64,000 nt of DNA from Candidatus Eiseniibacteriota bacterium (GTDB lineage Bacteria; Eisenbacteria; RBG-16-71-46; CAZAMP01), in assembly GCA_965224245.1 (NCBI GenBank), contig OZ245046.1:1408001-1472000 (forward strand), read 5' to 3'. Shown in pieces: positions 5,003 to 31,555 of the stretch. Position 1 is the stretch's first letter. Every line of letters begins with the position of its first letter. Position numbers and translations under genes: made by a program. The notes beneath the pieces were generated by a model. That model saw only the letters and a program-made list of their open reading frames with translations, had not been told where the DNA came from and made no database searches.

Positions 5003-5007
5003 CACCG

Positions 5008-5100: not shown

Positions 5101-5151
5101 GGCAGACTCCTCAAGTGACGAGAGAGTATTCCCGGTTTGCTCGCTTCGCTA

Positions 5152-5175: not shown

Positions 5176-5240
5176 CTGTTCGGCTTCTGACCTTTTTGTC
5201 TCCCCAGTCACGCAAATCCACCCGGATATCGCAGGCATTC

Positions 5241-5816: not shown

Positions 5817-5820
5817 CAGT

Positions 5821-6114: not shown

Positions 6115-6149
6115 CGGCGGACCAACCGAGGGACTTGAAGATGTGTGAT

Positions 6150-6178
6150 ATTGTTACATTTCCAGCTCCCATTGTCAA
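6150..6178 (-). promoter_or_regulatory. sigma70-type promoter of TA operon
   Basis: TTGACA-N17-AACAAT on minus strand, 35 nt upstream of toxin ATG. Confidence 0.6.
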
Positions 6179-6352
6179 CGGTCTCACGCCACCGGACTGC
6201 TCATAACAGCTTGTAAACATACAGGTTACCTGCATCGGGGATAGGTACAAAGCTAGACCGACACGAACAGTACACTTGGATACACGTTTGGGGCAAGGCA
6301 AGACTGTGCGCCCCAAGCGACGCCAAGCGGCCAATCAACGGAAACGACGGGA

Positions 6353-6625
6353 TCAACGGGTTTCGAGACGGCCCGAACGTGTCGCGTGCCCCAGACTCCG
6401 CGCGACGGCGCGACAGTCAAGCGGCCAATCGGCGATTTCGGCAGTCCCTGCCGGGTTCGGCCCGGAGCGACAGTAGAACGCTGCCAACCCAGGGGCGATG
6501 ACATGCGACTCCGCGACAAGCCCCGAAGGGCTGTGCAGATTGACTCGGCCGGCGCTCGACGTGGCCGGCATCACCAGGGCGATCACGCCCACGGCAAACG
6601 CTAGAGACTTGGCGGACCAACGCAT
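6353..6625 (-). CDS. Short/truncated secreted paralogue of the adjacent FlgD protein
   Basis: Signal peptide MRWSAKSLAFAVGVIALVMPATSSAGRV closely similar to that of 6717-7373; shared upstream DNA. Confidence 0.5.
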   Translation of the reverse strand: MRWSAKSLAFAVGVIALVMPATSSAGRVNLHSPSGLVAESHVIAPGLAAFYCRSGPNPAGTAEIADWPLDCRAVARSLGHATRSGRLETR

Positions 6626-7447: not shown

Positions 7448-7617
7448 CGACTCGGCGCGACAGTGCGACGAGAAATCGGCAGGATCGGAAGTTTTGGAAG
7501 GTCGCGCGCCCGAGTCGGGCCGTCGCAAACGTCGCAAACGCCGAATTCGGCGCGACAGTGCGACACCCCTCAGGGGCAACAAATCGGATAAATCGGCTAG
7601 ATCGAACATCAAGCGGC

Positions 7618-8001
7618 CTAGCGTGAAACCCTTCACGCTAGCGCCTCACGGCGAACGATCGGCCCCGCTTGAACGATCGGCCATCGCTAGCTTCTGTGAG
7701 CACGTTTCGCGCGTCGGTCCGACCATGGACTCGCGTCCGGACCTTCGATCGCTCTGAGTCGCCTAACGACGCCCCAGGGACGGCCGCGCCGGAAAGATCC
7801 TCGCCCAACGTCGCCCGCCAAGCGTGCGGGGAGCGTGAAGGAACCCACCCGCCCCCGTAGGGGGTGGGTTCTTTCACGCTTCACGCTAGACCGTGCACGC
7901 TTCACGGTAGCCAGAGCCCCGTATACCACTTAACACAATGTCCTACAGTTGCTTGCGATACCGTGAAACATTTCACGCTTGGAGTTTCACGCTTCACGCT
8001 T
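7618..8001. repeat. Iteron-like TTCACGCT/AGCGTGAA cluster with inverted repeats (putative replication origin)
   Basis: About ten exact or near copies in direct and inverted orientation; IRs at 7618-7641, 7832-7880, 7962-7977; AT-richer stretch 7921-7960. Confidence 0.7.
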
Positions 8002-9769
8002 TCCGGTCCGGTTTCCATTCGTCGGCGACGTCAAACAGCGTCGGAGCCGGGCCGCCTTTGTGCTCACGCACGACGCGCAACACTCCTTCGCCCGCGAGAT
8101 CAATCAGGTCTGACTTGACGGTCCGCTCGGTCGGTTGATGCACCCCCTCGTCAGCAAGCCACTGGTGCGCGTCCACCGATGAGAACCCCTCGACGCTCGG
8201 GAGCGGATAGATCGCGCCGCGTTTCACGTAGACTCTCCTGCGCTCGGCCATCCCCGACGCGCGCCGGCCGGCCGTCTTGATCGCCGGCGGAGCGGTCTTG
8301 AGGGCGTAGAGCGCGCCCGCGTGCGCGGAGTCCCGGGGGAATTGCCCGAGGTACGTCGGTTCCGTCGAGTCTCCCGCGTTGGTTTTCTCGACCTTGAACA
8401 TGATTGGATGCCCTTCGCGCGATCGGTCGATAACCGCATGCATGGTTGCGGGCGTGTTGCTCACGAACGTGCCGCCACCACTGATGTAGTCGTCGTGGAT
8501 CAGCGGGGCGTTTGACTTCCTCGCGTCCGCGCTGCCCTTCCGATAGTGATGAATGGCGAGCACGGCCGCATCCGTTCGGCGCGCGATTTCCTCAAGAGCA
8601 TTAGCGAGCGTATTCATGCCTTCTGAGGTCTCGGGGCATGCGGCAACACGTCGCACCGTGTCGAGGATGATAACGTCGGGCCGAAACTCACTCGCGAGCT
8701 CCTCGACACGCCGAAGTGCGCGCGGGTTCCGCTCGCCTCGTGACGTGACGAGCGGGGGAAGATCGAAATTCGGGCCGCCACCCATGACGCGGACGTTCCG
8801 CATCGCTAGGCGCTTGTCCGCGTCACTCGAGAGCGCCGCGTCAAGCGTGACGCCCCACCGGTATTCGATCGATAACGAGCCGGTGTGTTGCCCTGCGAAA
8901 GTCCGCAGCTCCGGACTGAGCACGAGCACACGCACCGGCTCGTGCACCGCGTGACCGAGAAATGGCTTTCCGGCCCCGAGACACGCGGCCAGTTGCAACG
9001 CGATAAACGTCTTTCCGACACCCGCCGGCCCGGCGAGTATTGTGTAACTCCCGCTCACAAGAAGCCCCAAACCGAGAAAGCAAGCGCCAGGTTGCAACGC
9101 GGTATCTTCGCGCCCGTCGGCGAGAAGCGTTTGCATATCGGGATAGCGCCGCAGCTCGGCAAGTAGCCCGCTCACGACGGGCGTACCCTCGGACGCCTTC
9201 GAGGCGCGCTCGCCTAGAGTGCCGAGGGCGGCGTAGGGGTCAACGTGCGAGTGCGCCGCCTCACTGAGACGGAGCGAGATCGCTTGGCATTCGCGCCGCG
9301 CCCGCGCCTCACCGAGCCTCTTCCATGCATCGTCGACGTCGTAACTCGACAGGAACATGCCGAGCGTTTGCTTGACGAACCATCGGAAGTCCGCATCCGG
9401 TCCGCCGCGAACGTCGGCCGTGGGGATACGATCAGCGTCTACGCAGCGGACGATCGCGGCCGCGTCGGTGGTAACGGCGTTGCCGTTGGCGTCGTCATGC
9501 ATGCGCCGCGTCGCCTCGACGATCGCCCAGCAATTAGGGTTGGCGAACAAGTCACTCGTGAGCGTCGACGCGCGTTCGTTGTCGAGGTTGCCGGTTGCAT
9601 ACGCGCCGGCGATGGCGGCCTCGGCGTCATAGTCCCGTGTCGGGTCGTCGGTGAGCGTGAGGTCTCGCGCGGTCTGTTCAGCGTAGGGGATGGCCTTCGT
9701 TGCCGTCCCCCTCACGCTGCGACGCACGCGGCCACTCGGGACGCCATTCACGCGCGTGGATGCCCTCAT
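7994..9769 (-). CDS. Replicative helicase-like AAA ATPase (DnaB_N-like + AAA_25/RepA + C-terminal wHTH)
   Basis: Walker A GPAGVGKT, Walker B VIILDT, VLAIHHYRK motif; N-terminal DAEAAIAGA...DLF; GAGGAG RBS before ATG 9769. Confidence 0.8.
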   Translation of the reverse strand: MRASTRVNGVPSGRVRRSVRGTATKAIPYAEQTARDLTLTDDPTRDYDAEAAIAGAYATGNLDNERASTLTSDLFANPNCWAIVEATRRMHDDANGNAVTTDAAAIVRCVDADRIPTADVRGGPDADFRWFVKQTLGMFLSSYDVDDAWKRLGEARARRECQAISLRLSEAAHSHVDPYAALGTLGERASKASEGTPVVSGLLAELRRYPDMQTLLADGREDTALQPGACFLGLGLLVSGSYTILAGPAGVGKTFIALQLAACLGAGKPFLGHAVHEPVRVLVLSPELRTFAGQHTGSLSIEYRWGVTLDAALSSDADKRLAMRNVRVMGGGPNFDLPPLVTSRGERNPRALRRVEELASEFRPDVIILDTVRRVAACPETSEGMNTLANALEEIARRTDAAVLAIHHYRKGSADARKSNAPLIHDDYISGGGTFVSNTPATMHAVIDRSREGHPIMFKVEKTNAGDSTEPTYLGQFPRDSAHAGALYALKTAPPAIKTAGRRASGMAERRRVYVKRGAIYPLPSVEGFSSVDAHQWLADEGVHQPTERTVKSDLIDLAGEGVLRVVREHKGGPAPTLFDVADEWKPDRKA

Positions 9770-9979
9770 CGCCGCAGCTCCTCTCACGAGCGGCTGGCAG
9801 GGTCTCCGGCGGCTGGCATTTGGCTGGTCAAACGGCGTCAGCCAACGCCAAGTACCGGTAACCCATCGGTTGACGAAGGCGACGAGATCAGGCGTGTAAC
9901 CCGTTGCGCGGGAAGGTAAGTAAGTGGGAGATGCCGACCTACGCGCGCGTTGAGTTGTTTCGGTCAGGATGGGGTTTAC

Positions 9980-10056
9980 TGGTACGCCCTACAGGATTCG
10001 AACCTGTGACCTTCTGCTCCGGAGGCAGACGCTCTATCCAGCTGAGCTAAGGGCGC
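9980..10056 (-). tRNA. tRNA-Arg (CCG)
   Basis: GCGCCCTTAGCTCAGCTGGATAGAGCGTCTGCCTCCGGAGCAGAAGGTCACAGGTTCGAATCCTGTAGGGCGTACCA; cloverleaf, anticodon CCG, encoded CCA. Confidence 0.98.
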
Positions 10057-13974: not shown

Positions 13975-14544
13975 TCAGCCCTCGGCGGCCTTCTCCGGGT
14001 ACGGATGCGCGATCTTCGCCTTCATCTCCTCGAAGTCGAATCCATCGAACGTGGGGCTCTTGTCGTTGTGACACTGCGTGCACGTGTCGGCGGTCGGAAT
14101 CACCATCCCGGCGGCCATCGCGGCGTCACGATCCTGCATGATGCTCTTCTTCTTGTAGACCTCGCCCGGTCCGTGGCAGCTCTCGCAGCCGACGCCCTGC
14201 TCGACGGCGTACTTCTTCCCCAGCCGCTCGGCCGCGACGCCGTGCGCCGTGACGTGACACTGGAGGCACTCGTCCATCTCCTGGGGGTTGCCCTCCAGGC
14301 CGAGCGTCTTCACCACCTCGGCCGCCTCCGGCGTCCCGAGCGTCTTCCACGCGCCCGCGTGAGGCGACTCGAGCCACTTGCCGTACTGGTTCCCGTCCGC
14401 CTCCTTCTTGTGGCAGATCTTGCACCCGTCGGCACCGACGAAGCCGGGAGGGGCCTCATCCTGACCGCTGACGGGGCCGCTGAGTACGAGCGCGGCCGCG
14501 GCAGCGGTGAGCAGCGGCACGCCTCCCACTTTCATCCAGTTCAT
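13975..14544 (-). CDS. Periplasmic tetraheme cytochrome c (c554-like)
   Basis: Signal peptide; CKICH, CLQCH, GVGCESCHGPG, CTQCH; AGGAG RBS. Confidence 0.9.
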   Translation of the reverse strand: MNWMKVGGVPLLTAAAAALVLSGPVSGQDEAPPGFVGADGCKICHKKEADGNQYGKWLESPHAGAWKTLGTPEAAEVVKTLGLEGNPQEMDECLQCHVTAHGVAAERLGKKYAVEQGVGCESCHGPGEVYKKKSIMQDRDAAMAAGMVIPTADTCTQCHNDKSPTFDGFDFEEMKAKIAHPYPEKAAEG

Positions 14545-14746
14545 GGCGTCACTCCTAACGCGAGGACCGATCCTGCCGTGAGGTGTCGAAGCGCCTGTCG
14601 AGCGCGGCACCGACGGAACATTGCACGCTCATCCTCGGAGATGTCCAGCCCTAACACCATACGGGATACTCCGTATAGTCGCGCCGATCTCACGAATAGG
14701 ATAAACCCCGGGAGATGCGACACGCTCCGCCGGTGAGGAGGATTGC

Positions 14747-16267
14747 GTGGCGAAAGCTCCGAACGCCGGTCGCGGCCAGGCCTTGCCCTCGGTCTTCTAC
14801 AACGTCATCACGGTGGTGGGCACCATCGTGGCGGCGACGAGCCTGGCACTGATCCTGTTCCTGATGGCGCTGGAGACGCTGGCGAGCGAGCACAAGCCCT
14901 ACATGGGCGTGATCGCGTTCGTGATTCTGCCCATCTTCCTGGTCCTGGGCGTGATCGTGGCCGCACTGGGGGTGCTGCGCGAGCACTCGCGCCGCCGCCG
15001 CGGCCTGCCGGCCACCCGCCAGCTCCCGATCGTCAACCTCAACGACCCCCGGCAGCGCCGGGCGGCCGGCCTGATCTTCGCAGGGGCCCTGGTGTACGCG
15101 GGCCTGACGGCGTTCGGCAGCTACAAGGCCTACGAGTACACCGATTCCGACGCGTTCTGCGGCACGACGTGCCATCGAGTGATGGCGCCCGAGCACATCG
15201 CCTACACGAGCTCACCCCACGCGCGGGTCGGGTGCGTCAAGTGTCACATCGGGCCCGGCGCGGAGTGGTTCGTACGCGCCAAGCTCTCGGGCCTCTATCA
15301 GGTCTACGCCACGGTGCTGGACAAGTACCCGAGGCCCATCGAGACGCCGATCCGGAACCTTCGCCCGTCGCGCGTGATCTGCGAGCAGTGCCACTGGCCC
15401 GAGCACTTCTACTCGGACAACTTCGTCGAGAACACGTACTTCGCCTCGGACGAGGCCAACTCCCGCTGGAAGCTCGACATGCTGCTGAAGATCGGCGGGG
15501 GGGCCGACGAGAGCCGCGGGACGCGTGCCGGCGTGCACTATCACATGTACGTGGCCAACCGGGTCGAGTACGTGGCCCTGGACGAGCGCCGCCAGGAGAT
15601 CCCGTGGATCCGCACCCAGGAAGCCGACGGTGCGGTGAAGGTGTACCGCAGCTCGCAGGGTGACTTCGACGCCGCCGCGCTCGATACGCTCGAGGTGCGG
15701 ACCATGGACTGCATCGACTGTCACAACCGCCCCGCACACCGCTACGAGCCACCGCCCCGTCTGGTCAACCAGGCGATGGCACGCGGGGGCATCTCGCCGG
15801 ACCTGCCCTCGATCAAGGAGGTCGCGGTCTCGGCCATGGAGCGAGACTACGCGACCACCGAGGAGGCCGAGATCGGGATCGAGGAGGCGATCCGCGGCTT
15901 CTACGAGAGGACGTATCCCGAGCTCGTTTCGAACGGTAGCGCGACCGCGATCGAGCAGGCCGTCGCGACCACGCAACGGCTGTACCGCGGCAACTTCTTC
16001 CCGGCGATGCGGGTGAGCTGGGAGTCGTTCCCCGACAACATCGGTCACCTGTACAGCGACGGGTGCTTCCGCTGCCACGACGGGCTCCACCAGACCGACG
16101 GCGGAGAGTTCCTGACCCGCGACTGCAACATCTGCCACTCGATCCTGGCCCAGACGACCGAGCAAGAGGGCGAGCGCATCGATCTCGGGGGCGTGGAGTA
16201 CCACCACCCCGAGGACATCGACGAGGTCTGGAAAGAGGAGAAGTGCACCGAATGCCACGCACCGTGA
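14747..16267 (+). CDS. ImcH-like inner-membrane NapC/NirT multiheme cytochrome c
   Basis: Three N-terminal TM helices; CGTTCH plus six CxxCH (CVKCH, CEQCH, CIDCH, CFRCH, CNICH, CTECH). Confidence 0.85.
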   Translation: MAKAPNAGRGQALPSVFYNVITVVGTIVAATSLALILFLMALETLASEHKPYMGVIAFVILPIFLVLGVIVAALGVLREHSRRRRGLPATRQLPIVNLNDPRQRRAAGLIFAGALVYAGLTAFGSYKAYEYTDSDAFCGTTCHRVMAPEHIAYTSSPHARVGCVKCHIGPGAEWFVRAKLSGLYQVYATVLDKYPRPIETPIRNLRPSRVICEQCHWPEHFYSDNFVENTYFASDEANSRWKLDMLLKIGGGADESRGTRAGVHYHMYVANRVEYVALDERRQEIPWIRTQEADGAVKVYRSSQGDFDAAALDTLEVRTMDCIDCHNRPAHRYEPPPRLVNQAMARGGISPDLPSIKEVAVSAMERDYATTEEAEIGIEEAIRGFYERTYPELVSNGSATAIEQAVATTQRLYRGNFFPAMRVSWESFPDNIGHLYSDGCFRCHDGLHQTDGGEFLTRDCNICHSILAQTTEQEGERIDLGGVEYHHPEDIDEVWKEEKCTECHAP

Positions 16268-16323
16268 GCGTCTCGCGGACCGTGGCGTAGTTCCGCGCGC
16301 AACCGCGCCGAGAGGAGGGCGAC

Positions 16324-18072
16324 GTGTCCGACCGCCTGTCACGCTTGGAGGGCGAGCTCGCCGAGATTCGCCACGCCCTCGGCAACGTCGAGCGTCGCCT
16401 GCAGCACCTCGAGGACGCCCACGAGATCGCGCTCGCCACCGAGGAGGAGGAAGGCGTCCCGGCCGGGGCGCACGTTCGCCACGCGGTCCGCGAGGACGAG
16501 GCCGCGCCGGCGTCTCGTGTCGACTCGACGCGTCTGGTCACGCTCACCGGACGGACGCTGGTCATCCTGGGCGCCGGACATCTGCTGCGCGCGATCACCG
16601 ATTCCGGCCTGGTGGTGCCGGCTGTCGGCGTGAGCCTGGGACTCATCTACGCGCTGAGCTGGCTCGTCGTGACGCGACGCGCGAAGGCGCGCGGGAGGGT
16701 CCGGAGCGCGGTGGCCTACGGCCTCTCGTCGGCGGCGATCGCGTTCCCGCTCCTGTGGGAGGCCGTCACGCGTTTCGGCGCCATCTCTCCGACGCTCGGC
16801 GCGGTGGCGGTCGGGGTGGCCGGGCTCCTGTTCCTGTCGACGGCTGCCCGGTGGGGCCTTCGCGGCTTCGCCATCGTGGCGGCCCTGGGGACGGTCGTCA
16901 CGTGCTTCGCGCTCGGCATCCAGACGCGCGCGCTCCTCCCGTGTGCGCTGGCGCTGCAGGTCGTCTCCGGCGTCGCGCTGTGGATCGGCTGGGTCAACCG
17001 ATGGACGATCCTGGCCTGGTTGACCGCGCCCGCCGCGAACATCGCCGTCCTCGGCGTCGTGGCCACGCTCGGGGTCGAGAAGACCTACGTGACCCCGACC
17101 GCCGGCTGGGCGCTCGGGCTCTCGCTGTTCACGCTCTATCTCGTCAGCTCGATCGTTCGGCTGCGCCGATCCATCTGGCGTGAGGGCTCGCTGTCGAGCT
17201 TCGAGCTGGCGCAGAACGTCGCCGCGTTCGTCTTTGGCTACGGCGGGGCCGTCGTCGTCTCCAGATGGACGGGAGAGGGCGTGTGGGCCATCGTGGCGGT
17301 GAGCCTCGTGCTCGTGGCCGCCAGCTACGGGTCGAGCTTCGCATCGCTGGCCGGGCCGAAGCTGGATCGGCTGGCGTTCTCTCACTACAACACGGTCGCG
17401 CTGGCCCTCGTCCTGGCCGCGAGCTGGCTCGCGCTGCCCACGCCGTGGGCGGTCGTGCTCTGGAGCCTCCTGGCGGTGGCGGGTGCGCTGATGAGCAGCC
17501 GTCTCCGCCGGCAGACGTTCGGTCTCCACGGCGCGGCCTCGGTCTCGGCGGCGGGCCTCGGGTCGGGCGTCGTGACGACGGCGCTCCTGGCGTTCACGAC
17601 GTCGCCCGAGCGGACCCAGCACCTCCGGATCCCGGCCGAGGGCTGGCTGGCGCTCGCCGCCGCCGTCCTCGGGCTCTTCGCCTTCGGAGTGGTGCCCCCG
17701 GAGATCGGGCGGCGTCGCGCCGCGTTCTCACGCGTCGTCTTCTGGTGCGTGGTGCTGCTCGGGCTCGGTGCGGTCGCGGTGCCGGCGCTCGCGCCCATGG
17801 CCGGGGAGGGGGAGACGGCGGCCTCGAACCTGGCCTCGCTCCGCACCGTGGTGCTCGCGATCGCGGTGACCGGTCTCGGGCTCGTCTCCCGTACCGCGCG
17901 CTTCCGGGACGCGCGGTGGATCGTCTACCCGCTGCTCGTGATCACGGCGCTGAAGCTAGTCGGGCAGGATCTCCCGCACGGCCGGCCGACGACGCTCTTC
18001 ATCTCGCTCGGGTGCTTCGGCCTGGCCCTGATCCTGGCGGCGAGACTGGTGGGGCGGACGCGAAAGGCGTAG
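16324..18072 (+). CDS. Polytopic membrane protein (DUF2339-like)
   Basis: N-terminal coiled coil, then many TM segments; C-terminal LKLVGQDL...LFISL. Confidence 0.65.
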   Translation: MSDRLSRLEGELAEIRHALGNVERRLQHLEDAHEIALATEEEEGVPAGAHVRHAVREDEAAPASRVDSTRLVTLTGRTLVILGAGHLLRAITDSGLVVPAVGVSLGLIYALSWLVVTRRAKARGRVRSAVAYGLSSAAIAFPLLWEAVTRFGAISPTLGAVAVGVAGLLFLSTAARWGLRGFAIVAALGTVVTCFALGIQTRALLPCALALQVVSGVALWIGWVNRWTILAWLTAPAANIAVLGVVATLGVEKTYVTPTAGWALGLSLFTLYLVSSIVRLRRSIWREGSLSSFELAQNVAAFVFGYGGAVVVSRWTGEGVWAIVAVSLVLVAASYGSSFASLAGPKLDRLAFSHYNTVALALVLAASWLALPTPWAVVLWSLLAVAGALMSSRLRRQTFGLHGAASVSAAGLGSGVVTTALLAFTTSPERTQHLRIPAEGWLALAAAVLGLFAFGVVPPEIGRRRAAFSRVVFWCVVLLGLGAVAVPALAPMAGEGETAASNLASLRTVVLAIAVTGLGLVSRTARFRDARWIVYPLLVITALKLVGQDLPHGRPTTLFISLGCFGLALILAARLVGRTRKA

Positions 18073-18133
18073 TCGCGACCGCGCGTCGACATCTCGGGTC
18101 GTGGGCGTGTCGCACCAAGAAGCCCCACGAAGA

Positions 18134-18161
18134 CGCCCCCCGGGCGGAGCACCGGGGGGCG
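18134..18161. terminator. Hairpin between convergent genes
   Basis: CGCCCCCCGG-N8-CCGGGGGGCG; no U-tract. Confidence 0.4.
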
Positions 18162-18241
18162 ACGCGTCGGGCGATGGGCGGACAACTCGGCGCTTCACGA
18201 GCTCGTTGCGAACAGCGCGCCGGTTCTCCGGATCGCCCGGG

Positions 18242-19810
18242 CTACCGGATCCCGAAGTCGTACGCGAGGTTGATCCTGACCACGTCGGCCGTGTAGTACC
18301 GGTCGACCAGGATGTAGTCGTCGTAGTTGTAGAGGTTGTACTGGACCTCGAGACGCCAATCGTCGAGGACCGTGTACTGACCTTCGAACGACCAGATCGA
18401 CTTCTCGATGTCGAGATCCTCGCTCGCATCCACGTACGTGACGCCGGTCGAGAGCCGGAGGTTCGCGATGCGCTCGATGTCGACGCGCCCCGAGACGAGG
18501 TCGGTCGCGGCCTCGAACCCCGCGACGAGATCGGTGTACTCGTCGCTCGTGTGCGTGTAGGCACCCGAGATCGCGCCCCAGCGGTCGAGCGAGTAGCGCG
18601 CCCCGGTGCGGATGGCCTCCCCCTCGGCCTCGACGCCGATGTCCGGGTAGTCCCGCTCGCGCACGTTGATGCCGCCCGACAGCGACAGGTTGTCGACCGG
18701 ACGAACCTCGAGATCGGCGCGGACCCGGGAGCTCTCGACGTCGCGGAGCAGCGTCAGCTCCTCGGTGTCGGTCTTCACCCGTCCGGAGTAGGCGCCCTTC
18801 GCCGTGACCATGCCGAAGCGCAGGGTCGCGGCGCCGATCCAGCCCTGGTAGCTCGTGAGCGACGCGTCGTCGTCGGTCGTCTCGTAGGAGTAGCCGCCGG
18901 TGACGCTGCCGTGGGCGTGGTAGAACGTCGCATCCACGCGGTTGAGGATGCGATCGGTCTGAAGGGTCGTGGACTCGTTGTCGACCTGCTGGGCGTCGAA
19001 CGTGTACGTCAGCCGGAGCGGGCTCCACGGACGCACGATGCCGGTGTAGCGAACCGTGTAGAACGTATAGTCGAGCTCGCCGTCGTCTCCCTCGACGTTG
19101 GACAGCTCGCTGATGCCGTAGGAGCCCCGGACCATGTGCGTGACCTTGTCCGTGAACATGCAGGGGCCGTAGACGCGCGCCGAGACCACGCGGCCGGTCC
19201 GGTCGGTGGTGGCGTCGAGCTCGTTCTCGAAGTCCGAGAGCCGGTAGTCGACGGCGATGCCGCGCCGCCCGCGCCGGGCCTCGGCCGCCACGCGGGTCGT
19301 CCGGTGGGCATAATCATAGCCGGTGCCGAGCACGCTCTCGGTGCCGCTGGGGAACGACAGGCGATCACCGTCACGGCTCAGATCGTCGTACGACGCCGAG
19401 AGCGTGAGCCATCGCAGGGGGGTCCAGCGTGCGTCGACGTTCCAGTCCTCGCGTTCGGAGGTGACCACTCGATCGGGATCGAAGACCTGCCGGCTCTGAT
19501 CGAAAGAGCCCTTCAGCGTGAACGCGCCGGGACGCCGCAGGAGTACGTCGCCTCGGCGGCCGTCCTGGTTGATCTGATGCAGGTTGATCGTGACGAAGTT
19601 CTGCTGATCGGGCGAGCCGTGCAGCCGGATCTGTGAGAGCGAGAAGCCGTCGTAGATGTTGAACGTCTCCTGCACGGCGGAGAGGTCGCCCTCTTCGTCC
19701 AGGATGATGCCCCCCATCTTCACCGTGCCGTTCCAGTTGCCTGCCGCGAGGGGGGAGGAGAGGCCGACGACGAGCGCGGCGACCGGCAGGACTGTCCTCT
19801 TCGTGCGCAT
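18242..19810 (-). CDS. MtrB/PioB-like outer-membrane beta-barrel
   Basis: Signal peptide, amphipathic beta-strands, C-terminal INLAYDF; directly downstream of decaheme cytochrome. Confidence 0.8.
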   Translation of the reverse strand: MRTKRTVLPVAALVVGLSSPLAAGNWNGTVKMGGIILDEEGDLSAVQETFNIYDGFSLSQIRLHGSPDQQNFVTINLHQINQDGRRGDVLLRRPGAFTLKGSFDQSRQVFDPDRVVTSEREDWNVDARWTPLRWLTLSASYDDLSRDGDRLSFPSGTESVLGTGYDYAHRTTRVAAEARRGRRGIAVDYRLSDFENELDATTDRTGRVVSARVYGPCMFTDKVTHMVRGSYGISELSNVEGDDGELDYTFYTVRYTGIVRPWSPLRLTYTFDAQQVDNESTTLQTDRILNRVDATFYHAHGSVTGGYSYETTDDDASLTSYQGWIGAATLRFGMVTAKGAYSGRVKTDTEELTLLRDVESSRVRADLEVRPVDNLSLSGGINVRERDYPDIGVEAEGEAIRTGARYSLDRWGAISGAYTHTSDEYTDLVAGFEAATDLVSGRVDIERIANLRLSTGVTYVDASEDLDIEKSIWSFEGQYTVLDDWRLEVQYNLYNYDDYILVDRYYTADVVRINLAYDFGIR

Positions 19811-19822
19811 CAGGTCACCGTC

Positions 19823-20782
19823 CTAGAAAGCATGGCAGCCACTCGCGAAGCACCCCTGACCCTGAAGCGACTCGGTCAGGAAGTGTCGCGAGACGTACGA
19901 CCCGTGAATGTCGGTGTGGCACTCGTTGCAGGCCATCCCGGCCCACCGCGTGCCGTGCCTCGTGTTCTGGTTGTGACCAGGCACCGAGTGGCACTGCGAG
20001 CAGAGCTGATAGTGAGGCGACTCGTAGGGCTGCTGGAGCATCCTCGGCAGGTTCGAGCCGTGCGGGCTGTGGCACGACAGGCAGCCCCCCTCCTCGGTCG
20101 AGTAGTCGACCGTGGCCTGATGCTCGAACGGGAACGGCCCCTGGAACTCGACGTGACAGTCCATGCAGGGCTCGTTCGTGCCGTGACGCGCCAGCTCCAC
20201 CGACGTGACGTCGAGCGTCATGTGACAGTCGGCGCACGCGACCACGTCGTCGTTGACCGGGTGTCGATAGGCCTGCGCGAACTGGGCGGCCACGTCGGTG
20301 TGGCAGTCGAGGCAGAGCGTGGTCTGGCCGCTGTGCAGGAGCCCCGCCGAATGGTTTCCGTGGACCTGGTGGCAACCCGTGCAGCTCACGTCGTTCGCGG
20401 CGTGAACGTTGCCCTCCATCATGTTCTGCTGGTGGGAGTTCATGTGGCACTGCGAGCACACGAGTGCGGTGGCCATGGGTGCCAGATGCGACGGGTCCTC
20501 CCGAGGATACTCCTCGGGATCGTCCTCGTAGTGCCGTGCGTCGCCGGCGTGACAGTCGGAGCACGCAACCCGAGCCGCGGCGTCGCCGGGCGACAGGCGG
20601 TGGGGCGACGCGTCGAGGCCCGCCGCATAGCCCTCGTGACAGTCGAGGCACACGTCGCTGACATGCTCGCCGTCGTCGGCGGATACCGAGTCGAACAGGA
20701 GCGAGAGCGACGCGGTACAGGCGAGGACGGTCACGAGCATCCCCGTACCGTACCGACTCCGTCGTTCGTGTTCTATGTTCAC
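19823..20782 (-). CDS. MtrA/DmsE-family decaheme cytochrome c
   Basis: Ten CxxCH, GPFPFEH, CHSPHGS, CHTDIHGS motifs, plus terminal CFASGCH; GGAGGT RBS before GTG 20782. Confidence 0.92.
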   Translation of the reverse strand: MNIEHERRSRYGTGMLVTVLACTASLSLLFDSVSADDGEHVSDVCLDCHEGYAAGLDASPHRLSPGDAAARVACSDCHAGDARHYEDDPEEYPREDPSHLAPMATALVCSQCHMNSHQQNMMEGNVHAANDVSCTGCHQVHGNHSAGLLHSGQTTLCLDCHTDVAAQFAQAYRHPVNDDVVACADCHMTLDVTSVELARHGTNEPCMDCHVEFQGPFPFEHQATVDYSTEEGGCLSCHSPHGSNLPRMLQQPYESPHYQLCSQCHSVPGHNQNTRHGTRWAGMACNECHTDIHGSYVSRHFLTESLQGQGCFASGCHAF

Positions 20783-20972
20783 CGGTGTGACACCTCCACA
20801 TAGGAGAACGTCGGTATGTATAGTGGCCTTCGATACGGCGTGAAACCCTTTTTTTCCGTCGCCGCTCAAATCACCTAGCGACATACGTAGTTCTACTGAT
20901 AGGTTTCCCGAACGCTGGGACATATCGTTCACGACCGTGTTCGCCGGTGCGATTCGCGTGAGGGAGGTGTCG

Positions 20973-21440
20973 ATGACAGACGACCGGGGCCAGTGGCGGC
21001 GACGGCGTTTCCTCAACTGGCTCCTGGGCGGTGCCGGAGGCGCGTTCTTCGTCTCGGTCTTCTACCCCGTCTTTCGTTTTCTAAGCCCTCCTCGCATCCC
21101 CGAAGCCACGACCAACCGCGTCGCCGCCGGCACCACCAACGACCCGGACTACCTCGACAAGCGTTACAAGATCGTTCGCTTCGGAGCCGATCCGGTGATC
21201 GTGGTGAAGCTCTCCGAGACCGACTTCCGCGCGTTCTCCGCCACGTGCACCCACCTCGATTGCATCGTGGAGTATCGGCGTGACAGGAACGTGATCTGGT
21301 GCAACTGCCACAACGGCCAGTACGACCTGAGCGGCAAGAACGTCGCGGGACCGCCGCCACGCCCGCTCGACGCGTTCACGGTCAACCTCGTCACCGAGGG
21401 GCCGGACGGACCCACCAGCGTCTTCGTCTCGAGGGTCTGA
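20973..21440 (+). CDS. Rieske 2Fe-2S subunit of cytochrome bc complex
   Basis: Tat motif [35 protein letters not shown]. Confidence 0.95.
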
Positions 21441-21441
21441 C

Positions 21442-22626
21442 GTGGAGAGCGCGCGCGAGACACACCCGACACGAGCCCCCGGCCTGGGCGGCTGGCTGGA
21501 CGAGCGCCTCAAGCTGGGAAGTCTCGTGGCCTTCGCCTCGCACAAGCTCGTCCCGTCGCACCGGTTCTCGGTCTTCTACTTCCTCGGCGGGATGACGCTC
21601 TTCTTCTTCGTCGTCCAGGTCGCCACCGGCGTCCTCTTGATGCTGTACTACCGGCCGTCGGCGGAGGAGGCGTTCGAGTCGGTGGAGTTCCTGATGACGA
21701 CGGTGAACTTCGGCTGGCTCATCCGGTCGATTCACTCGTGGTCGGCCAACCTCATGGTGTTCTTCGCGTTCGTCCATCTGGCCACGGTGTTCTTCGTGAA
21801 GGCGTACCGGCCGCCGCGCGAGCTGACGTGGATCACCGGGTGTCTCCTCCTGTTCCTGTCGATGGCGTTCGGGTTCTCCGGGTACCTCTTGCCCTGGAAC
21901 CAGCTGGCGTTCTTCGCCACGAAGGTGGGGACCGACATCGCCGGAGCGGTGCCCGTCATCGGCGACTGGCTCCTCCGCTTCCTGCGCGGCGGAGATCACG
22001 TGGCGGGCGGTACGCTCTCGCGGTTCTACGGCTGGCACGTCGCGATCCTGCCCGCCATCACGGCCGTGGTGGTCTTCCTGCACATCCTGCTCGTTCAGCT
22101 CCTCGGCATGAGCGTGCCGCCCAGCGAGGAGAGCCGCGCCCGGCGACGCAAGCCGATGAAGTTCTTCCCGGACTTTGCGCTGCGCGATCTGTTCGGGTGG
22201 GTGCTCGCGCTCGGCGTCCTGGCCGCCCTGGCCGCGCTCTTCCCGTGGGAGCTCGGCGAGAAGGCCGATCCGTTCGCGCCTGCCTACGCGGACATCAAGC
22301 CCGAGTGGTACTTCATGTTCATGTTCCAGACGCTGAAGCTCGTGCCCGGTGGCGAGATCGCCGGGATCGAGTACGAGGCCCTCGCCATCCTCGCGTTCGG
22401 CGCGATGGCCCTCGTCACGGTCTTGATCCCGTTCCTGGACCGGAGCGTTCGCCGTCGAGGACTGAGCCGCTTCTTCACGGTCATCGGGTCGCTGACGCTG
22501 GTGTTCATCGTCGCGATGACGACGTGGGGCTATCACTCGCTCGTTCCGATCTGGATCGTCATCGGGACGGCCGTGGTCCTGCTGGTGCTGGGCTACGCCA
22601 CCCGAGTCACGAAGACGCAGCCATGA
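21442..22626 (+). CDS. Cytochrome b subunit (unsplit) of bc complex
   Basis: Four heme-b His (IHSW, VHLA, WHVA, LHIL), GYLLPW, KPEWY. Confidence 0.95.
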
Positions 22627-24350
22627 CGAGATTCACGCGCACATCGACGTCGCTTCTCCTCGCCCTCGGCATGGGCGCGAGCGCGGCGACCGGCGCCGTC
22701 GACACGTCCTGCGTGCGGTGCCACGGAGATCCCGACCTCTTCGAGGGTGACGACCTGGCGGTCGTCCACGACGTCGAGACCAGCGTGCACGGGGCGGCCG
22801 GGCTCTCGTGTCACGACTGTCACGGGGGCAACCCCGACGTCGCGGTGGCCGAGGACGCCGACGCGGCCATGGATCCCGGCTTCGCGCCGAATCCCTACGT
22901 CGGGCCACCCGCCCGGGCGGACGTCCCGTCGTTCTGCGGTCGGTGTCACTCGGATCCGGCGTACATGAAGCGCTTTCGTCCCGACTTCCGGGTGGACCAG
23001 GAGGCCGAGTACCGGACCAGCCATCACGGTGTGGCGCTCGCGGCGGGGGACACGCGCGTGGCGACGTGCGTGAGCTGCCACGGCACGCACGACATCCTCC
23101 CGGTGAAGGACTCCGCGTCACCGGTATACCCCACGCGCGTGGCCGAGACGTGCCGCGGCTGCCACGGCGACGCGGAGACGATGGCCGGGTACCGGCGCGA
23201 TGACGGGACGCCGCTGCCCGTGGACCAGTACGAGCGCTGGACGAGCAGCGTCCACGGTGCGGCCATGCTGGTGCGCGGGGATGTGTCGGCGCCCACGTGC
23301 AACGACTGTCACGGCAATCACGGCGCGGCGCCCCCGGGGCTCGAGTCGGTGGCGCTGGTATGTGGGCAGTGTCACGGTCGTGAGGCCGATCTGTTCCGGG
23401 AGAGCCCCAAGCGCGCGGGCTTCGAGGCTCACAACGAGTACCTCGCCGACGCCGAGGACGGCTGTCGCGACTGTCACGAGGCCCCGGAGCCGGCGGTCAC
23501 GATGTCCCTCCGACACTTCAGCGAGTGCGCCACCTGTCACGACAACCACGCGGTGCTCCGTCCCACGGTGGCGATGCTCGGCGCGCTTCCGGCCACGCCC
23601 TGCGCGTTCTGCCACGAGGGTGACGACCCGCCGGCCGGCGCGGCCTCCGAGCCCGAGCGGATCCGCGCCCACTACCGCGACGAGCTGGGGCGGCTCATGG
23701 CCGAGGCGGAGGCCAGCGGGGAGGGCCTCGAGGGCGAGCTGCTCTTCGACTGGCTGGTGGATCGTGCGCTGGAGCTTCCCGCGCACACCACGGCCAGCGC
23801 GGACCGGGACACGGGCTCGCATCTCCGGCCCGAGTTCGCCAAGCTCTTCTCCAAGTTCCGGATCGGCAAGACGCACCACGTGATCGGCGACGCGGAGTCG
23901 GGGCGAACCTCCCTCGTCCGGGTCGTGCAGTGCACCGACTGTCACGCCGCCCCGGACGTCGCGTCCGTCGATCCGGTCGGACACGAGACCGCCGCGAGCT
24001 TCCTGGCCCGCATGCACGATCTGACCTCGCAGATCGCGCGCACCGAGCGAACCCTGCTCGCGGCGCGACGCGGCGGAGTCGAGGTCGGCGAGGGGTCGCT
24101 GGAGCTCGACCGGGCGGTCGGCGTTCAGGTGGAGCTGGAGGCCCTCGTGCACACGTTCGACGCCGACACGTCGGCGGCGTTCGTGCACAAGCAGGCCGAA
24201 GGGCTCGAGCACACCGAATCCGCGCTCGTGATCGCCCAGGCCGGCCTCCGGGAGCTCTCCAACCGGCGTCGCGGCCTCACGATCGCGCTCGGCGTGATCG
24301 TGCTGCTCCTGATCGGCCTGGGGCTCAAGATCCGGTGGGCCGAGACGTAG
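22623..24350 (+). CDS. 11-heme cytochrome c with C-terminal membrane anchor
   Basis: ATGA overlap with cytochrome b; signal peptide; 11 CxxCH; C-terminal [21 protein letters not shown]. Confidence 0.9.
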
Positions 24351-24370
24351 CCGGTTCGCAGGCCTGGCCC

Positions 24371-25987
24371 GTGCCCGGCCTCGCGCTCGCCGGGCGGCCA
24401 CTCGCCGCGATGGCGGCGACCGCGGCGTCGCTCGCGTGGAGCCCGATCGACGGCGCGCACGCCCAGTGCCTGCTCGCGAACCCGAGCTTCGAGGTTCCCG
24501 GTAGCGGGGGCGAGCTCTTCGCCGGCTGGCGCCACTTCGGCCGGGTCGCCGCGCACGACGAGGCCCCGCACGGGGCCGCCGCGGCCCGGATGTCGGGACC
24601 GGACACCGGCGCGTGGGCGGTCTCGGCCTGCTGGCAGCGTCTGGACGCGACCCCCGGCGAGGTGTGGACGGCGAGCGCCTGTGCCTGGCACGGAGCCGGT
24701 GCGCCGCTGGGCGGTGAGTCGCGCGCGATCCTGAACGTCGAGTGGCGGGACGCATCCGGAGCGCTGATCGACTACGAATCCCACGCCGTGCTCGACGCCG
24801 CCACCCCGGTGGAGCGGCTCGTGACCGTCGTCGTCCAGAGCTCGCCGGCGCCGCCGGGGACCGAGTCCGTCCACGTGCTACTCGGGATTCTCCAGGGACC
24901 GGACGACCCGGCGGCCGACGTCTTCTTCGACCTCGCGCGCTTCGACAGCCAGGGGCCGCCCGGGTTCGACGAGCTCCAGTGGCTCGACTTTCCGGGCGGA
25001 CGGACGCTGGATTTCAGCGGGCGATCCTGGCGCGTCAAGGGGCCGGGCGTCTACCACCCCGGTCCCGACGTGTACTGCGACGCGGCGAGCTGCGTCTGGG
25101 TCGATGCCGGCGGCCGCCTGCACCTGACGATCGACGATGTCGACGGGGAGTGGGCCAGCACGGAGATCGCCGCGACCGAGCCGCTCGGCTACGGCGACTA
25201 CGTCTTCACGACCGTTGGGCGCCTCGACGCTCTCGAACCCAGCGTCGTCCTGGGGATGTTCCTCTGGCAGTACGGGCCATGCTACGACCCGGCCGACGGC
25301 TGGTGGAATCCGTACGACGAGATCGACGTCGAGTTCGCACGGTGGGGAGATCCGGCTGCCGAGATCGGCCAGTTCGTCGTGCAGCCGTACGACGCCCCCG
25401 GCAACCTGAGCCGCTTCGATGCCGCGTTCTCCGAGGGCGAGCGGACGAGTCACGCGTTCCGGTGGCGGCCCGATCGCGTCGAGTTCCGGAGCTGGCGTGG
25501 AGGTCCTGCCGACGAGGCGCCGGAGACGACGATCCACACCTGGACGTACTCCGGCATCCATCTTCCGAGGCCCGAGGAGCCGCGCGTGCACGTGAACCTG
25601 TGGCAGCTCGGGGGACCGCCGGCACGCGCGCACGAGATCGTGCTCGAGTCGTTCGCGTTCGTGGCGTGGGAGGATGACGAGGAGCTCGGCGCGGGGGTCG
25701 TGTCGGAGCCCGGCCGCGATCCCGTGATCGCCGCGCCGACGCCGTTTCGACGCGGGACGACGATCCGCTTCCGGCCCCGTCGTGGCGGCGATGCGCAGGT
25801 CGACGTCCACGACGCGGGGGGACGCCGGGTTCGCTCGATCCATCTTCGGGTGCGCCGCGGCGAGACCGTCTCCGCGCTCTGGGATGGACGGGACGACGCC
25901 GGACGCCGCTCGGCTCCCGGGGTCTATCTCGTCCGGATCCGCATCGGCGAGACCCTCTCGACGGGCAGGACGGTCCTCCTGGAGTAG
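24371..25987 (+). CDS. Secreted CBM-like + GH16-like glycoside hydrolase + FlgD-Ig
   Basis: LLANPSFE jelly-roll domain; EIDVE catalytic motif; WDGRDDAG...PGVY tail; start uncertain. Confidence 0.75.
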   Translation: MPGLALAGRPLAAMAATAASLAWSPIDGAHAQCLLANPSFEVPGSGGELFAGWRHFGRVAAHDEAPHGAAAARMSGPDTGAWAVSACWQRLDATPGEVWTASACAWHGAGAPLGGESRAILNVEWRDASGALIDYESHAVLDAATPVERLVTVVVQSSPAPPGTESVHVLLGILQGPDDPAADVFFDLARFDSQGPPGFDELQWLDFPGGRTLDFSGRSWRVKGPGVYHPGPDVYCDAASCVWVDAGGRLHLTIDDVDGEWASTEIAATEPLGYGDYVFTTVGRLDALEPSVVLGMFLWQYGPCYDPADGWWNPYDEIDVEFARWGDPAAEIGQFVVQPYDAPGNLSRFDAAFSEGERTSHAFRWRPDRVEFRSWRGGPADEAPETTIHTWTYSGIHLPRPEEPRVHVNLWQLGGPPARAHEIVLESFAFVAWEDDEELGAGVVSEPGRDPVIAAPTPFRRGTTIRFRPRRGGDAQVDVHDAGGRRVRSIHLRVRRGETVSALWDGRDDAGRRSAPGVYLVRIRIGETLSTGRTVLLE

Positions 25988-29764: not shown

Positions 29765-31555
29765 TCAGGGGCGGCGGACGAGCCGCATGGTGCGGCGATC
29801 ACCGCCGGCGTCGAGCCGGAGGAAATAGACACCCGGCCCGACCGGGTGGCCGGCCCCGTTCCGTCCATCCCACTCGACCGCGTGCGCACCTCGCGCGTGG
29901 GCCCCGATCGCGAGCGTGCGCACGAGCCGCCCGCGTGCGTCGTACACGACGAGTGACGCATCGCCGCCGGACGGGAGCTCGTAGCGGATTGCCGTCCGGG
30001 GCGAGAAGGGATTGGGGGCAGCGGGTCCCAGGACGTGCAGCGCCGTGACCGCGGGCGGTGAGTCGGACGCGAGGAGATCCTGGTTCTCGAACGACCAGCG
30101 ATCGGTTCGAAACGTCTGGACCCCGCCGGTCGGGCTCACGACCACGATCACGACTCCGATCAGCCGTCCGTTGCCGCCGGCGCTCACGGGAGTCGGGTCG
30201 AAGACGCCGTTCCCACCCCAGTGGTAGGAGTTGTCGTCGTAGAACTCGTCGATCGGGATCGAGACGCGCTGCCAGCCGCCTCCCGACACGGCACCGGGGC
30301 CGGTCGGACTCACCACGAAGTCGAACTGGAACTCGTCGTCTCCGCCGTCACCGACCGGGGGAATGCGGTCGTCACCATCGTCGTCGTCCTGAAGGTTCAG
30401 CTCCAGCGTGTAGCTCTGGTCCGCGTCGGGATTGATCCAGAACGAGAAGTGCGTCACGTCGGTCAGATCCACGGGAAGGGTGCGCCCGAAGACGCCGACG
30501 AAGCCCGCCGGGCCGCCCCATCCCGACTCCAGGGAAAAGCGACAGCCGTCGCCGGGCGGGAGATCCACGGCGCTGGCGCCGATGCCGCCACCGCCGCCGC
30601 CACCCTCACTCCACCAGCCGTTTCCGTAGGGGTCGCCGTGGTCCATGCCGTCGAACAGCACGCCGCGATCGGGGTGCTCGGGCTTCTGGTACACGCGCAC
30701 GTAGTCGATGACGTACTCCTGCGGGAACTCCGTCGTGTCGTCCGGTGGCCCGGGCAGATTTCCCCCGACGGCCATGTTCAGGAGCAGATGGAAGTCGTGG
30801 TCGAACGGAGCGGGGTAGGGGCCCCCCGAGGACGTCCAGAAGCTGTTGCACGCGTACTGGACGCCATCGACGTACCAGCGCATCTCGTGGGGCTCCCACT
30901 CCAGGGCGAACACGTGAAAGCCGTCGTCGAACGTGCCCTCGGGCAAGGTGTGGTCGGTGGTGGCGTAGCGGTGACCCGGGTCCCCGTAGTGCAGCGTGCC
31001 GAACGTGCGATCGGGGTCCTGTCCGAGATACTCCATGATGTCGATCTCGCCCGAGACCGGCCATCCGCCGTAGGGGCTGTCCGTGGGGAGCATCCAGAAC
31101 GCGGGCCAGATGCCCTGTCCGACCGGCAGCTTCGCTCGCATCTCGAAGCGTCCGGTCGTCCAGTCGCCGAGGCCCCGGGTGCGCAGCCGTGACGACGTGT
31201 AGTCGCGTCCGCCGAACGATTCTTCCTTCGCGGTGATCGTCAGGACGCCGTCGGCGACGGTCGAGTTCTCCGCGCGGTAGTACTGGAGCTCGTCGTTGCC
31301 CCATCCACAGAGGTCGGGGCACCCGGTTCCGATCTGGAACTCCCACTTCGTGGGATCGACCTCGGTGCCGTCCAACTCGTCGCTCCAGACGAGCGTGTAC
31401 TCGGCCGCCGAGTTGGACGCGCACAGGCCGAGCAGCGTGGCCGCGATCGCCATCGACCGAGCACGGGACCGGACGGCCACGCGCGACGCGGTGTGGACGG
31501 GCGTGGGACCGTCGCCGGCGGCCGAGGCCGCCGGCGGGGACGTCGGGACGATCAC
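29765..31555 (-). CDS. Secreted GH16 endo-beta-1,3-glucanase + CBM-like domain + FlgD-Ig
   Basis: WSDE, WGNDELQYY, GIWPAFWML, GEIDIME, DYVRVYQ; alternative start ATG 31453. Confidence 0.92.
   Translation of the reverse strand: MIVPTSPPAASAAGDGPTPVHTASRVAVRSRARSMAIAATLLGLCASNSAAEYTLVWSDELDGTEVDPTKWEFQIGTGCPDLCGWGNDELQYYRAENSTVADGVLTITAKEESFGGRDYTSSRLRTRGLGDWTTGRFEMRAKLPVGQGIWPAFWMLPTDSPYGGWPVSGEIDIMEYLGQDPDRTFGTLHYGDPGHRYATTDHTLPEGTFDDGFHVFALEWEPHEMRWYVDGVQYACNSFWTSSGGPYPAPFDHDFHLLLNMAVGGNLPGPPDDTTEFPQEYVIDYVRVYQKPEHPDRGVLFDGMDHGDPYGNGWWSEGGGGGGGIGASAVDLPPGDGCRFSLESGWGGPAGFVGVFGRTLPVDLTDVTHFSFWINPDADQSYTLELNLQDDDDGDDRIPPVGDGGDDEFQFDFVVSPTGPGAVSGGGWQRVSIPIDEFYDDNSYHWGGNGVFDPTPVSAGGNGRLIGVVIVVVSPTGGVQTFRTDRWSFENQDLLASDSPPAVTALHVLGPAAPNPFSPRTAIRYELPSGGDASLVVYDARGRLVRTLAIGAHARGAHAVEWDGRNGAGHPVGPGVYFLRLDAGGDRRTMRLVRRP

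Follow-up and report, generated by a model that had tools for sequence, protein, structure and literature searches.

The closest described relatives of the gene cluster analyzed here are the MtrCAB conduit of Shewanella (PDB ID 6R2Q) and its relatives MtoAB and PioAB. The cluster consists of eight adjoining genes at positions 13975-24350 of the window, i.e., the whole 64,000-nucleotide stretch of contig OZ245046.1 that was analyzed, and it encodes multiheme cytochromes, a predicted outer-membrane barrel and a Rieske/cytochrome b complex. As in MtrCAB, one cytochrome is homologous to MtrA along the heme chain, a 26-strand barrel superposes on MtrB in the predicted model, and the cytochrome gene precedes the barrel gene; in related loci, a lipoprotein cytochrome matching MtrC/MtrF domain II/IV is encoded beside the pair. 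Several features set the cluster apart from MtrCAB. The MtrA-like cytochrome contains 11 heme motifs, including an invariant C-terminal CX4CH, instead of 10, and it scores below the cut-off of the DmsE-family model. The barrel has 522 residues, compared with 649 in the solved chain, and is missed by the Pfam model PF11854. As surface partner, a hexaheme protein of about 300-330 residues is encoded after the barrel, whereas MtrC is a decaheme protein encoded before MtrA, and in this genome the partner gene is unlinked to the pair.

Clusters of this general kind, which combine MtrAB with Rieske and cytochrome b proteins, are already known, because a Zixibacteria cluster published in 2013, a comparable Geobacter cluster and surveys of iron-related genes precede the present one. 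RBG-1, an uncultured member of the same superphylum (Zixibacteria), has homologs of MtrA and MtrB together with several periplasmic or inner-membrane multiheme cytochromes and the Rieske/cytochrome b pair PetAB (Castelle et al. 2013, PMC3903129). The accessible part of that paper reports no extracellular cytochrome homologs in the cluster, and because none was found its authors read the cluster as probable, mixotrophic Fe(II) oxidation. ImcH is not mentioned in its main-text passages, and the barrel of one Zixibacteria locus (L063) is only 23% identical to the window barrel. The extHIJKLMNOPQS genes of Geobacter sulfurreducens likewise unite a porin-like gene, multiheme cytochromes, a Rieske protein (ExtO) and a cytochrome b (ExtP) in one conserved cluster (PMC5877670). 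The window cytochrome b scores 212.7 bits with the ExtP model, short of its cut-off of 290 bits. Furthermore, ExtI is a small porin (45 kDa) unlike MtrB, the ext cytochromes belong to other families, and the passages available from that paper tie the cluster to selenite and tellurite reduction.

Iron-cycling genes have been listed in Eisenbacteria, Latescibacterota and Zixibacteria by surveys, as their accessible parts indicate (PMC8478452, PMC9769843, PMC10809760). A first-pass annotation of the window had called its lineage not established as electroactive; this is true of cultures, but the surveys had already listed such genes there. In the literature searched, outside which most subscription journals lie, we found no description of a trio that includes a hexaheme lipoprotein, nor of imcH beside mtrAB. 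Four things look undescribed within that literature, namely the trio built around a wire of 11 hemes, the compact barrel of 26 strands, the lipoprotein with six hemes and the proximity of ImcH.

We read the region as a modular extracellular electron transfer (EET) island of an uncultured, soil-type bacterium resembling Candidatus Eisenbacteria, in which an Mtr-type conduit would be accompanied by two quinol-oxidizing modules of the inner membrane. We hold this reading, in which outward flow is preferred, with moderate confidence.

The MtrA-like cytochrome and the MtrB-like barrel

A profile built from 33 homologs of the MtrA-like protein matched chain A of 6r2q with an E value of 5.8e-48. We take this chain to be MtrA; the molecule label in the structure file is odd. 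Positions 30-297 were aligned with chain residues 54-325, and the homology spans the whole heme chain of the solved protein. All heme cysteines and histidines, in ten CXXCH motifs and one CX4CH motif, are invariant in the 33 homologs. The same was found for the 11 CXXCH motifs of a second 11-heme cytochrome in the cluster (c11, discussed below) and its own 33 homologs; because of this invariance, the motifs of neither protein are due to chance. TIGR03508, the model of MtrA/DmsE-family decaheme cytochromes, matched the MtrA-like protein over positions 2-257 of its 258 (E = 3.6e-49). This family is recognized by a length of about 300 residues, a signal peptide and ten CXXCH motifs, all of which were found, plus the one extra CX4CH. 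The hydrophobic leader, a predicted signal peptide with RRSR in its n-region, is obtained when translation starts at the GTG at 20782; an alternative ATG start lies at 20740. We identify the 11-heme protein as a true MtrA homolog by its sequence.

The barrel gene starts 12 bases past the stop codon of the MtrA-like gene. The AlphaFold2 (AF2) model of the barrel is compact, with 26 strands, short loops and a predicted local distance difference test (pLDDT) score of 86.9. The top Foldseek match was 6r2q_B (E = 3.9e-18, template modeling score 0.74), followed by a runner-up with an E value of 2.6e-10 and a score of 0.50. Superposition by VIA-align gave a Z score of 25.4 with 6r2q_B, with 490 residues aligned at a root mean square deviation of 3.6 Å, and the next-best chains were 22-strand transporters with a Z score of 17.0. 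The first-pass annotation had staked its proposal on the barrel modeling as a cytochrome-sheathing porin, and the strand number and the extent of the alignment to MtrB keep that proposal standing. The barrel is MtrB-like in its predicted structure; the sheathing of a cytochrome is likewise a prediction, on which the adjacency of the two genes at all 56 testable loci (see below) bears. PF11854 (MtrB_PioB) was matched by 15 of 42 barrel homologs, the best with an E value of 1.3e-7. With this model, no match was obtained anywhere in the genome, nor any above the cut-off in 14 control genomes.

The conserved trio and the displaced surface cytochrome

A survey of 65 loci with related barrels was carried out; the relatives of this genome are labeled Candidatus Eisenbacteria, Krumholzibacteriia and Latescibacterota. 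The upstream side was tested where at least 900 bp was available, and the downstream side where at least 1 kb was available. An MtrA-like gene was found directly upstream of the barrel gene at all 56 testable loci. Directly downstream, a gene for a protein of about 300-330 residues with five or six hemes was found at 56 of the 59 testable loci, the exceptions being L030, L036 and L064. Therefore, the conserved unit in the relatives is a trio of MtrA-like cytochrome, barrel and hexaheme lipoprotein, of which the window carries two thirds. In every one of the 56 hexaheme proteins, a cysteine preceded by A, G or S follows a hydrophobic leader, with a conserved C-[DEST]-R-x-[IV]-T pattern (45 were flagged by a regular expression and the other 11 by eye). 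We assign the leader and its cysteine as a lipoprotein signal on this pattern.

In the window, the position downstream of the barrel gene is occupied by a convergent membrane-protein gene. The hexaheme ortholog of this genome is a solitary gene 311 kb from the cluster (G000:C1:1739133-1740119), which encodes a 65% identical protein with the lipobox LASC. This protein matched PF22113 (MtrC/MtrF domain II/IV) with 39 bits, above the cut-off of 30, and a search of the PDB with the hexaheme lipoprotein gave nothing at E <= 0.01. The first-pass annotation had proposed a full quinone-to-surface wire. The gene array of locus L007 fits such a wire, but the one in the window is not full, because the surface partner present at 56 of 59 loci of the relatives is absent from it. 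EET potential may thus be misjudged from single clusters, as the surface cytochrome here is encoded far from its partners.

Members of the Eisenbacteria, Krumholzibacteriia and Latescibacterota group are frequent in soils and sediments, and none that is electroactive has been cultured. If our reading is correct, they would possess a compact Mtr-type conduit of their own, made of an 11-heme wire, a 522-residue barrel of 26 strands and a hexaheme lipoprotein. Standard models recognize this conduit only in part, with the barrel missing PF11854 and the cytochrome falling below the DmsE-family cut-off. It would also raise the question of which inner-membrane enzyme feeds the conduit, and whether a Q-cycle complex can do so while conserving energy.

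Some further observations were made at the surveyed loci. In several Eisenbacteria loci, giant cytochrome open reading frames (ORFs) share the strand of the MtrA-like gene and precede it (L001:3493-6750, L013:2-3445, L038:3108-6365 with 42 CXXCH motifs, and L003:4099-6726 with 35), directly so in L001, L038 and L003. The genome of the window has ORFs with 26 and 16 CXXCH motifs at C1:448068-451414. The 604-residue protein encoded next to the displaced hexaheme gene (L066:8320-10134) ends in a tail resembling FlgD-Ig or type IX secretion sorting domains. At L054:6975-9600 the MtrA-like and barrel genes appear to be broken up into shorter frames, as a frameshift or an assembly error would cause, and the very long tree branch of the L028 barrel (9.41) suggests a mis-called frame.

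The ImcH-like cytochrome and the tetraheme cytochrome

ImcH homologs are defined by three N-terminal transmembrane helices, an atypical CX3CH motif beside them and six CX2CH motifs, and those of Geobacter have 495-519 residues, according to the part of the source available (Zhong and Shi 2018, PMC6295460). All of these features were found in the 506-residue cytochrome of the window. Its helices, located by hydropathy peaks, lie near the N terminus at about residues 23-41, 55-73 and 106-124; CGTTCH is at 138 and the CXXCH motifs are at 163, 212, 322, 440, 460 and 500. For GSU3259, the 507-residue ImcH of G. sulfurreducens, the same paper gives motifs at 132, 156, 205, 311, 428, 448 and 486 and helices at 13-35, 45-67 and 100-122. 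In both proteins, the CX3CH lies beside the third helix, the spacing of the six CX2CH motifs is near-identical, and a NapC/NirT-like stretch crosses the third helix and the first hemes (PF03264 over residues 104-194 in the window protein). The published ImcH architecture can thus be assigned to this cytochrome from its motifs and helices, GSU3259 having been compared by tabulated motif positions only. The family is a large one: 709 representatives were retrieved at E <= 1e-30.

In the accessible part of the 2018 survey, no mtrAB or mtoAB adjoins imcH (PMC6295460), whereas in the window and in L007, L028, L033, L034 and L054 a few kb at most separate an ImcH-like gene from the MtrA-like/barrel pair. 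A second ImcH-like paralog is present in the same genome (L067, G000:C1:743924-748122). It has 524 residues and is 39% identical by tblastn. It belongs to a further multiheme cluster, in which the adjacent gene encodes a cytochrome with 14 hemes and a cytochrome b561-like gene is close by.

Divergent from the ImcH-like gene is the gene of the tetraheme cytochrome, which matched PF13435 (Cytochrome_C554) with 64.4 bits and PF22113 with 33.6 bits. In L007 and L014, a homolog of it immediately precedes the MtrA-like gene. We regard this protein as a candidate periplasmic shuttle.

The Rieske/cytochrome b/c11 complex

The motifs of bc1- and b6f-type complexes are all present in the second inner-membrane module, namely CTHLDC and CNCH in the Rieske protein and H-x13-H, H-x14-H and the Qo-site PEWY in cytochrome b. 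The Rieske protein matched PF00355 with 44.6 bits and, weakly, the PetC-anchor model PF25471 (31 bits, below the cut-off of 37.1). Cytochrome b matched PF00033 with 180.5 bits, as well as PF00032. With the cytochrome b6 model it scored 228 bits, which, like its ExtP score, is below the cut-off. The ATG of the third gene overlaps the stop codon of cytochrome b. Its product is not a mono- or diheme cytochrome c1, f or cc subunit; it is c11, a protein with 11 hemes and a predicted membrane anchor, of which residues 24-282 matched TIGR03508 of the DmsE family (E = 1.3e-11). Its model had a pLDDT score of 77.7, and neither Foldseek at E <= 0.001 nor the profile found a match for it in the PDB. Multiheme c subunits of Rieske/cytochrome b complexes are known in other lineages. 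From its sequence and gene position, c11 is assigned as the c-type subunit of the complex. In a survey of 80 metagenome loci fetched with c11, with flanks of up to 7 kb, the Rieske gene was upstream at all 53 testable loci and cytochrome b was adjacent at 51 of the 53.

The genome has a second Rieske/cytochrome b complex (L068, G000:C1:6154037-6157576). Its cytochrome b scores 232 bits with the ExtP model and has an ExtQ-like C-terminal part, and its c subunit, with seven motifs, ends in ccoP-like class I cytochrome c domains. Because of this second complex with its ccoP-like c subunit, the one in the window is probably not the housekeeping complex.

Among 8000 candidates, 4102 c11 relatives were found at E <= 1e-20. 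Seven of the best 120 relatives carried organism labels, which were Thermoanaerobaculia (five) and Acidobacteriota (two). A recent horizontal arrival of the operon was considered and dropped. Its third-position GC of 0.90 matches that of its neighbors; however, c11 in full length was detected in just 3 of the 151 sampled genomes of the phylum, so such an arrival may still have taken place.

The proposed route and the linkage of its modules

In the proposed route, quinol would be oxidized at the inner membrane in either of two ways. The ImcH route would operate without a Q cycle. The Rieske/b route would involve a Q cycle and conserve energy, and would be usable only with acceptors of fairly high potential. 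Electrons would then pass through the anchored 11-heme subunit, the tetraheme shuttle, or both, to the MtrA-like heme chain inside the barrel, and from there, by way of the hexaheme lipoprotein at the surface, to an acceptor that is insoluble or extracellular, e.g., humic substances or oxides of Fe(III) or Mn(IV). Every step of this route is predicted from sequence, and the same hardware could run inward.

Several results weigh against this reading. At the level of the single proteins, the MtrA-like cytochrome reached 167.6 bits with TIGR03508, for which the cut-off is 192.2, the window barrel had no PF11854 match at E <= 1, and its profile found no PDB sequence at E <= 1. The surface cytochrome gene lies outside the cluster. 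The modules are also separable. Flanks of 5 kb or more on either side were available for 33 barrel loci; among these, the bc trio was found at seven, an ImcH-like gene at five, the tetraheme gene at seven, both bc and ImcH-like genes at one, and the 582-residue membrane protein of the window at none. In a sample of 151 genomes of the phylum, 20 had the barrel and 36 an ImcH-like gene, with both in 9, i.e., in only 9 of the 20 barrel-bearing genomes. None of the 80 loci fetched with c11 had a barrel of the window type. On a barrel tree of 59 rows, from which the truncated or split barrels of L005, L020, L023, L038, L043, L054 and L059 were left out, bc adjacency changed eight times and ImcH adjacency nine times, no fewer than with shuffled labels, and the class with neither neighbor is inflated by short contigs. 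Furthermore, a Rieske/b complex beside an Mtr-type conduit was read by Castelle et al., in the part of their paper available, as favoring Fe(II) oxidation (PMC3903129).

The first-pass annotation was right in assigning ImcH-like, MtrAB-like and Rieske/cytochrome b modules, which all hold by homology or architecture. The co-conservation of the genes, on which it had also staked its proposal, was not borne out for the eight as a whole: the loci with long flanks reveal no such block, and the modules combine variably.

This variability could mean that there is no single pathway. In that case, the trio would be a self-contained conduit, the Rieske/b/11-heme complex would be a general variant of complex III serving other periplasmic reductases or oxidases, and the ImcH-like protein would serve other cytochromes, with their proximity due only to the gathering of cytochrome genes in islands. 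We consider this distinctly unlikely. It agrees with the very wide spread of the Rieske/b/c11 operon without the window barrel and with the scatter of adjacency labels on the barrel tree. In most loci, the trio has no bc or ImcH-like gene nearby, and the genome has other multiheme clusters, including the one with the second ImcH-like paralog. However, tightly spaced co-directional arrays join the modules at several loci. In L007, the ImcH-like, tetraheme, MtrA-like, barrel and hexaheme genes follow one another in the same direction with small gaps. In L052, L053, L056 and L058, the Rieske, cytochrome b, c, MtrA-like, barrel and hexaheme genes are co-directional, and in L030 and L022 the MtrA-like/barrel pair is followed by the bc trio. 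An ImcH-like gene was found within 7 kb of the bc operon at 15 of the 80 c11 loci. An unrelated lineage with a GC content of 53-55% (L108, L111, L115) shows the combination again, although its barrel is a different and longer one. There, MtrA-like, barrel (733-771 residues), Rieske, cytochrome b, multiheme c and ImcH-like genes occur together; the MtrA-like protein has 10 CXXCH motifs in the gene calls of L115 and L111, and in L108 it is a tblastn match only. Finally, as far as the accessible text describes it, the published Zixibacteria cluster shows the combination as well (PMC3903129).

The metagenome contig L115 (55% GC) deserves a fuller description. Within L115:1793-15241, genes for a 10-heme MtrA-like protein and a 771-residue MtrB/PioB-like barrel (24.1 bits with PF11854) are followed by Rieske, cytochrome b and a c11 relative that is 41% identical by tblastn. 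An ImcH-like gene is also present, as is one for a CbcL-like protein in which a nine-heme part is fused to a b561-type membrane domain.

A stronger form of the modular EET reading is that the Rieske/b6 complex, including the anchored, MtrA-like subunit with 11 hemes, is a complex III reserved for extracellular acceptors, i.e., a proton-motive entry to the conduit coupled to a Q cycle. We put this forward tentatively and rather doubt it. If true, such a complex would yield more energy per electron on high-potential minerals than quinol oxidases of the ImcH or CymA type. Its pairing with Mtr conduits in at least three lineages, namely the Eisenbacteria/Latescibacterota/Krumholzibacteriia, the 53-55% GC lineage with the longer barrel and the Zixibacteria of the published cluster (in the part of that report available), would then mark a widespread and unrecognized form of energy-conserving mineral respiration.

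Direction of electron flow

Electrons could also flow inward as in MtoAB/PioAB. Fe(II), Mn(II) or a donor resembling a cathode would then supply them from outside the cell, and the conduit would hand them on to periplasmic cytochromes. Some would continue to a terminal oxidase, and others would be driven uphill through a reversed Rieske/cytochrome b complex to reduce quinone. We judge this direction to be unlikely. A bc complex beside an iron-oxidation conduit resembles the reverse-running bc1 of acidophilic iron oxidizers, and the second Rieske/b complex of the genome, with its ccoP-like c subunit, would fit the oxidase branch. In the passages available, Mtr homologs are described as operating both ways (PMC6295460), and mixotrophic Fe(II) oxidation was proposed for the Zixibacteria MtrAB and PetAB cluster (PMC3903129). 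However, the argument of Castelle et al. rested on the lack of an extracellular cytochrome, whereas the pair analyzed here is conserved together with a lipoprotein cytochrome of the surface. According to the accessible part of the 2018 survey, Fe(III) reducers are so far the only organisms in which ImcH homologs have been detected, with none in Fe(II) oxidizers (PMC6295460). No RuBisCO was found in this 97.4%-complete genome, although mixotrophy or other carbon-fixation pathways are compatible with inward flow.

Outward flow is therefore favored, because a surface lipoprotein cytochrome is conserved in the relatives, ImcH is implicated only in reduction, RuBisCO was not found and the genome is rich in multiheme proteins. 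It contains 37 stop-to-stop ORFs with at least four CXXCH motifs, some of which are overlapping frames.

Cluster layout and genomic setting

The GC content of the window is 62-74%, so open frames abound, and genes were called by third-position GC, which chooses one frame per stretch. This analysis, with which the family scans agree, confirmed the eight contiguous genes in two divergent pairs of units given by the first-pass annotation (Table 1). Its total of 33 heme-c motifs (4+7+11+11) is exact on recounting; two are non-canonical, the CX3CH of the ImcH-like protein and the CX4CH of the MtrA-like protein.

Table 1. Genes and sequence elements of the cluster, with positions in the window
Feature	Positions	Strand	Characteristics
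Tetraheme cytochrome c, c554-like, predicted periplasmic, 189 aa from ATG	13975-14544	-	4 CXXCH; Sec signal, no lipobox
Sigma-70-like promoter match	14651-14679	+	Between tetraheme and ImcH-like genes; consensus match only
ImcH-like inner-membrane cytochrome, 506 aa	14747-16267	+	3 predicted transmembrane helices; 6 CXXCH and CGTTCH (CX3CH)
Multi-transmembrane protein, possibly DUF2339-like, 582 aa	16324-18072	+	About 13 transmembrane helices, N-terminal coiled coil; no cofactor motif
GC-rich inverted repeat	18136-18159		Between convergent stop codons of membrane-protein and barrel genes; read from sequence
MtrB-like outer-membrane beta-barrel (predicted), 522 aa	18242-19810	-	No heme motif; AF2 model and structure matches
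MtrA-like periplasmic cytochrome (predicted), 305-319 aa	19823-20782	-	10 CXXCH and C-terminal CFASGCH (CX4CH)
Sigma-70-like promoter match	20795-20824	+	Upstream of Rieske gene, in divergent region; consensus match only
Rieske [2Fe-2S] subunit, 155 aa	20973-21440	+	Twin-arginine signal (RRRRFL), transmembrane anchor; no heme-c motif
Cytochrome b, b6 part fused to subunit-IV part, 394 aa	21442-22626	+	PF00033, PF00032
Anchored cytochrome c11, 575 aa	22623-24350	+	11 CXXCH; N-terminal signal, helical C-terminal domain, C-terminal transmembrane helix at about 552-570

Each of the two divergent junctions (14545-14746 and 20783-20972) holds one of the sigma-70-like sites, both on the + strand; against these two sites found, shuffled sequences gave an expectation of 0.4. 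The 55 nucleotides around the inverted repeat have a predicted folding energy of -38.4 kcal/mol. The repeat is followed by no T-run and was not called by the terminator scan; it is possibly a bidirectional terminator hairpin.

The 582-residue protein had no Pfam or NCBIfam match. In a language-model atlas, 29 of its 30 matches were in the DUF2339 set, with a best score of 0.97, and its likeness to DUF2339 on these features is a lead only. As a conserved part of the conduit it was rejected, being absent from all 65 barrel loci. Relatives with 29-41% identity were found within the flanks of the c11 operon at 11 of the 80 loci (L069, L071, L088, L091, L092, L093, L097, L099, L103, L106 and L117), mostly directly beside the operon. 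Where they adjoin it, they either precede the Rieske gene in divergent orientation or come right after c11. The protein may be an accessory of the Rieske/b/c11 complex and not a stray gene.

The genome comprises 6.94 Mb in 27 contigs, and four DNA sequencing runs, all of one sample, contain the stretch. The first 10 kb of the window have a GC content of 0.60-0.66, compared with 0.67-0.74 across 10001-60000, and carry a tyrosine-recombinase gene of the phage integrase family (3099-4037, - strand), with a tRNA-Arg(ccg) gene at 9980-10056 (- strand). Positions 1-10056 may be an integrated element beside the tRNA, about 4 kb from the cluster. On the other side, secreted proteins encoded at 24350-25987 and 31552-32952 have C-terminal tails like those of FlgD-Ig or type IX secretion sorting domains.

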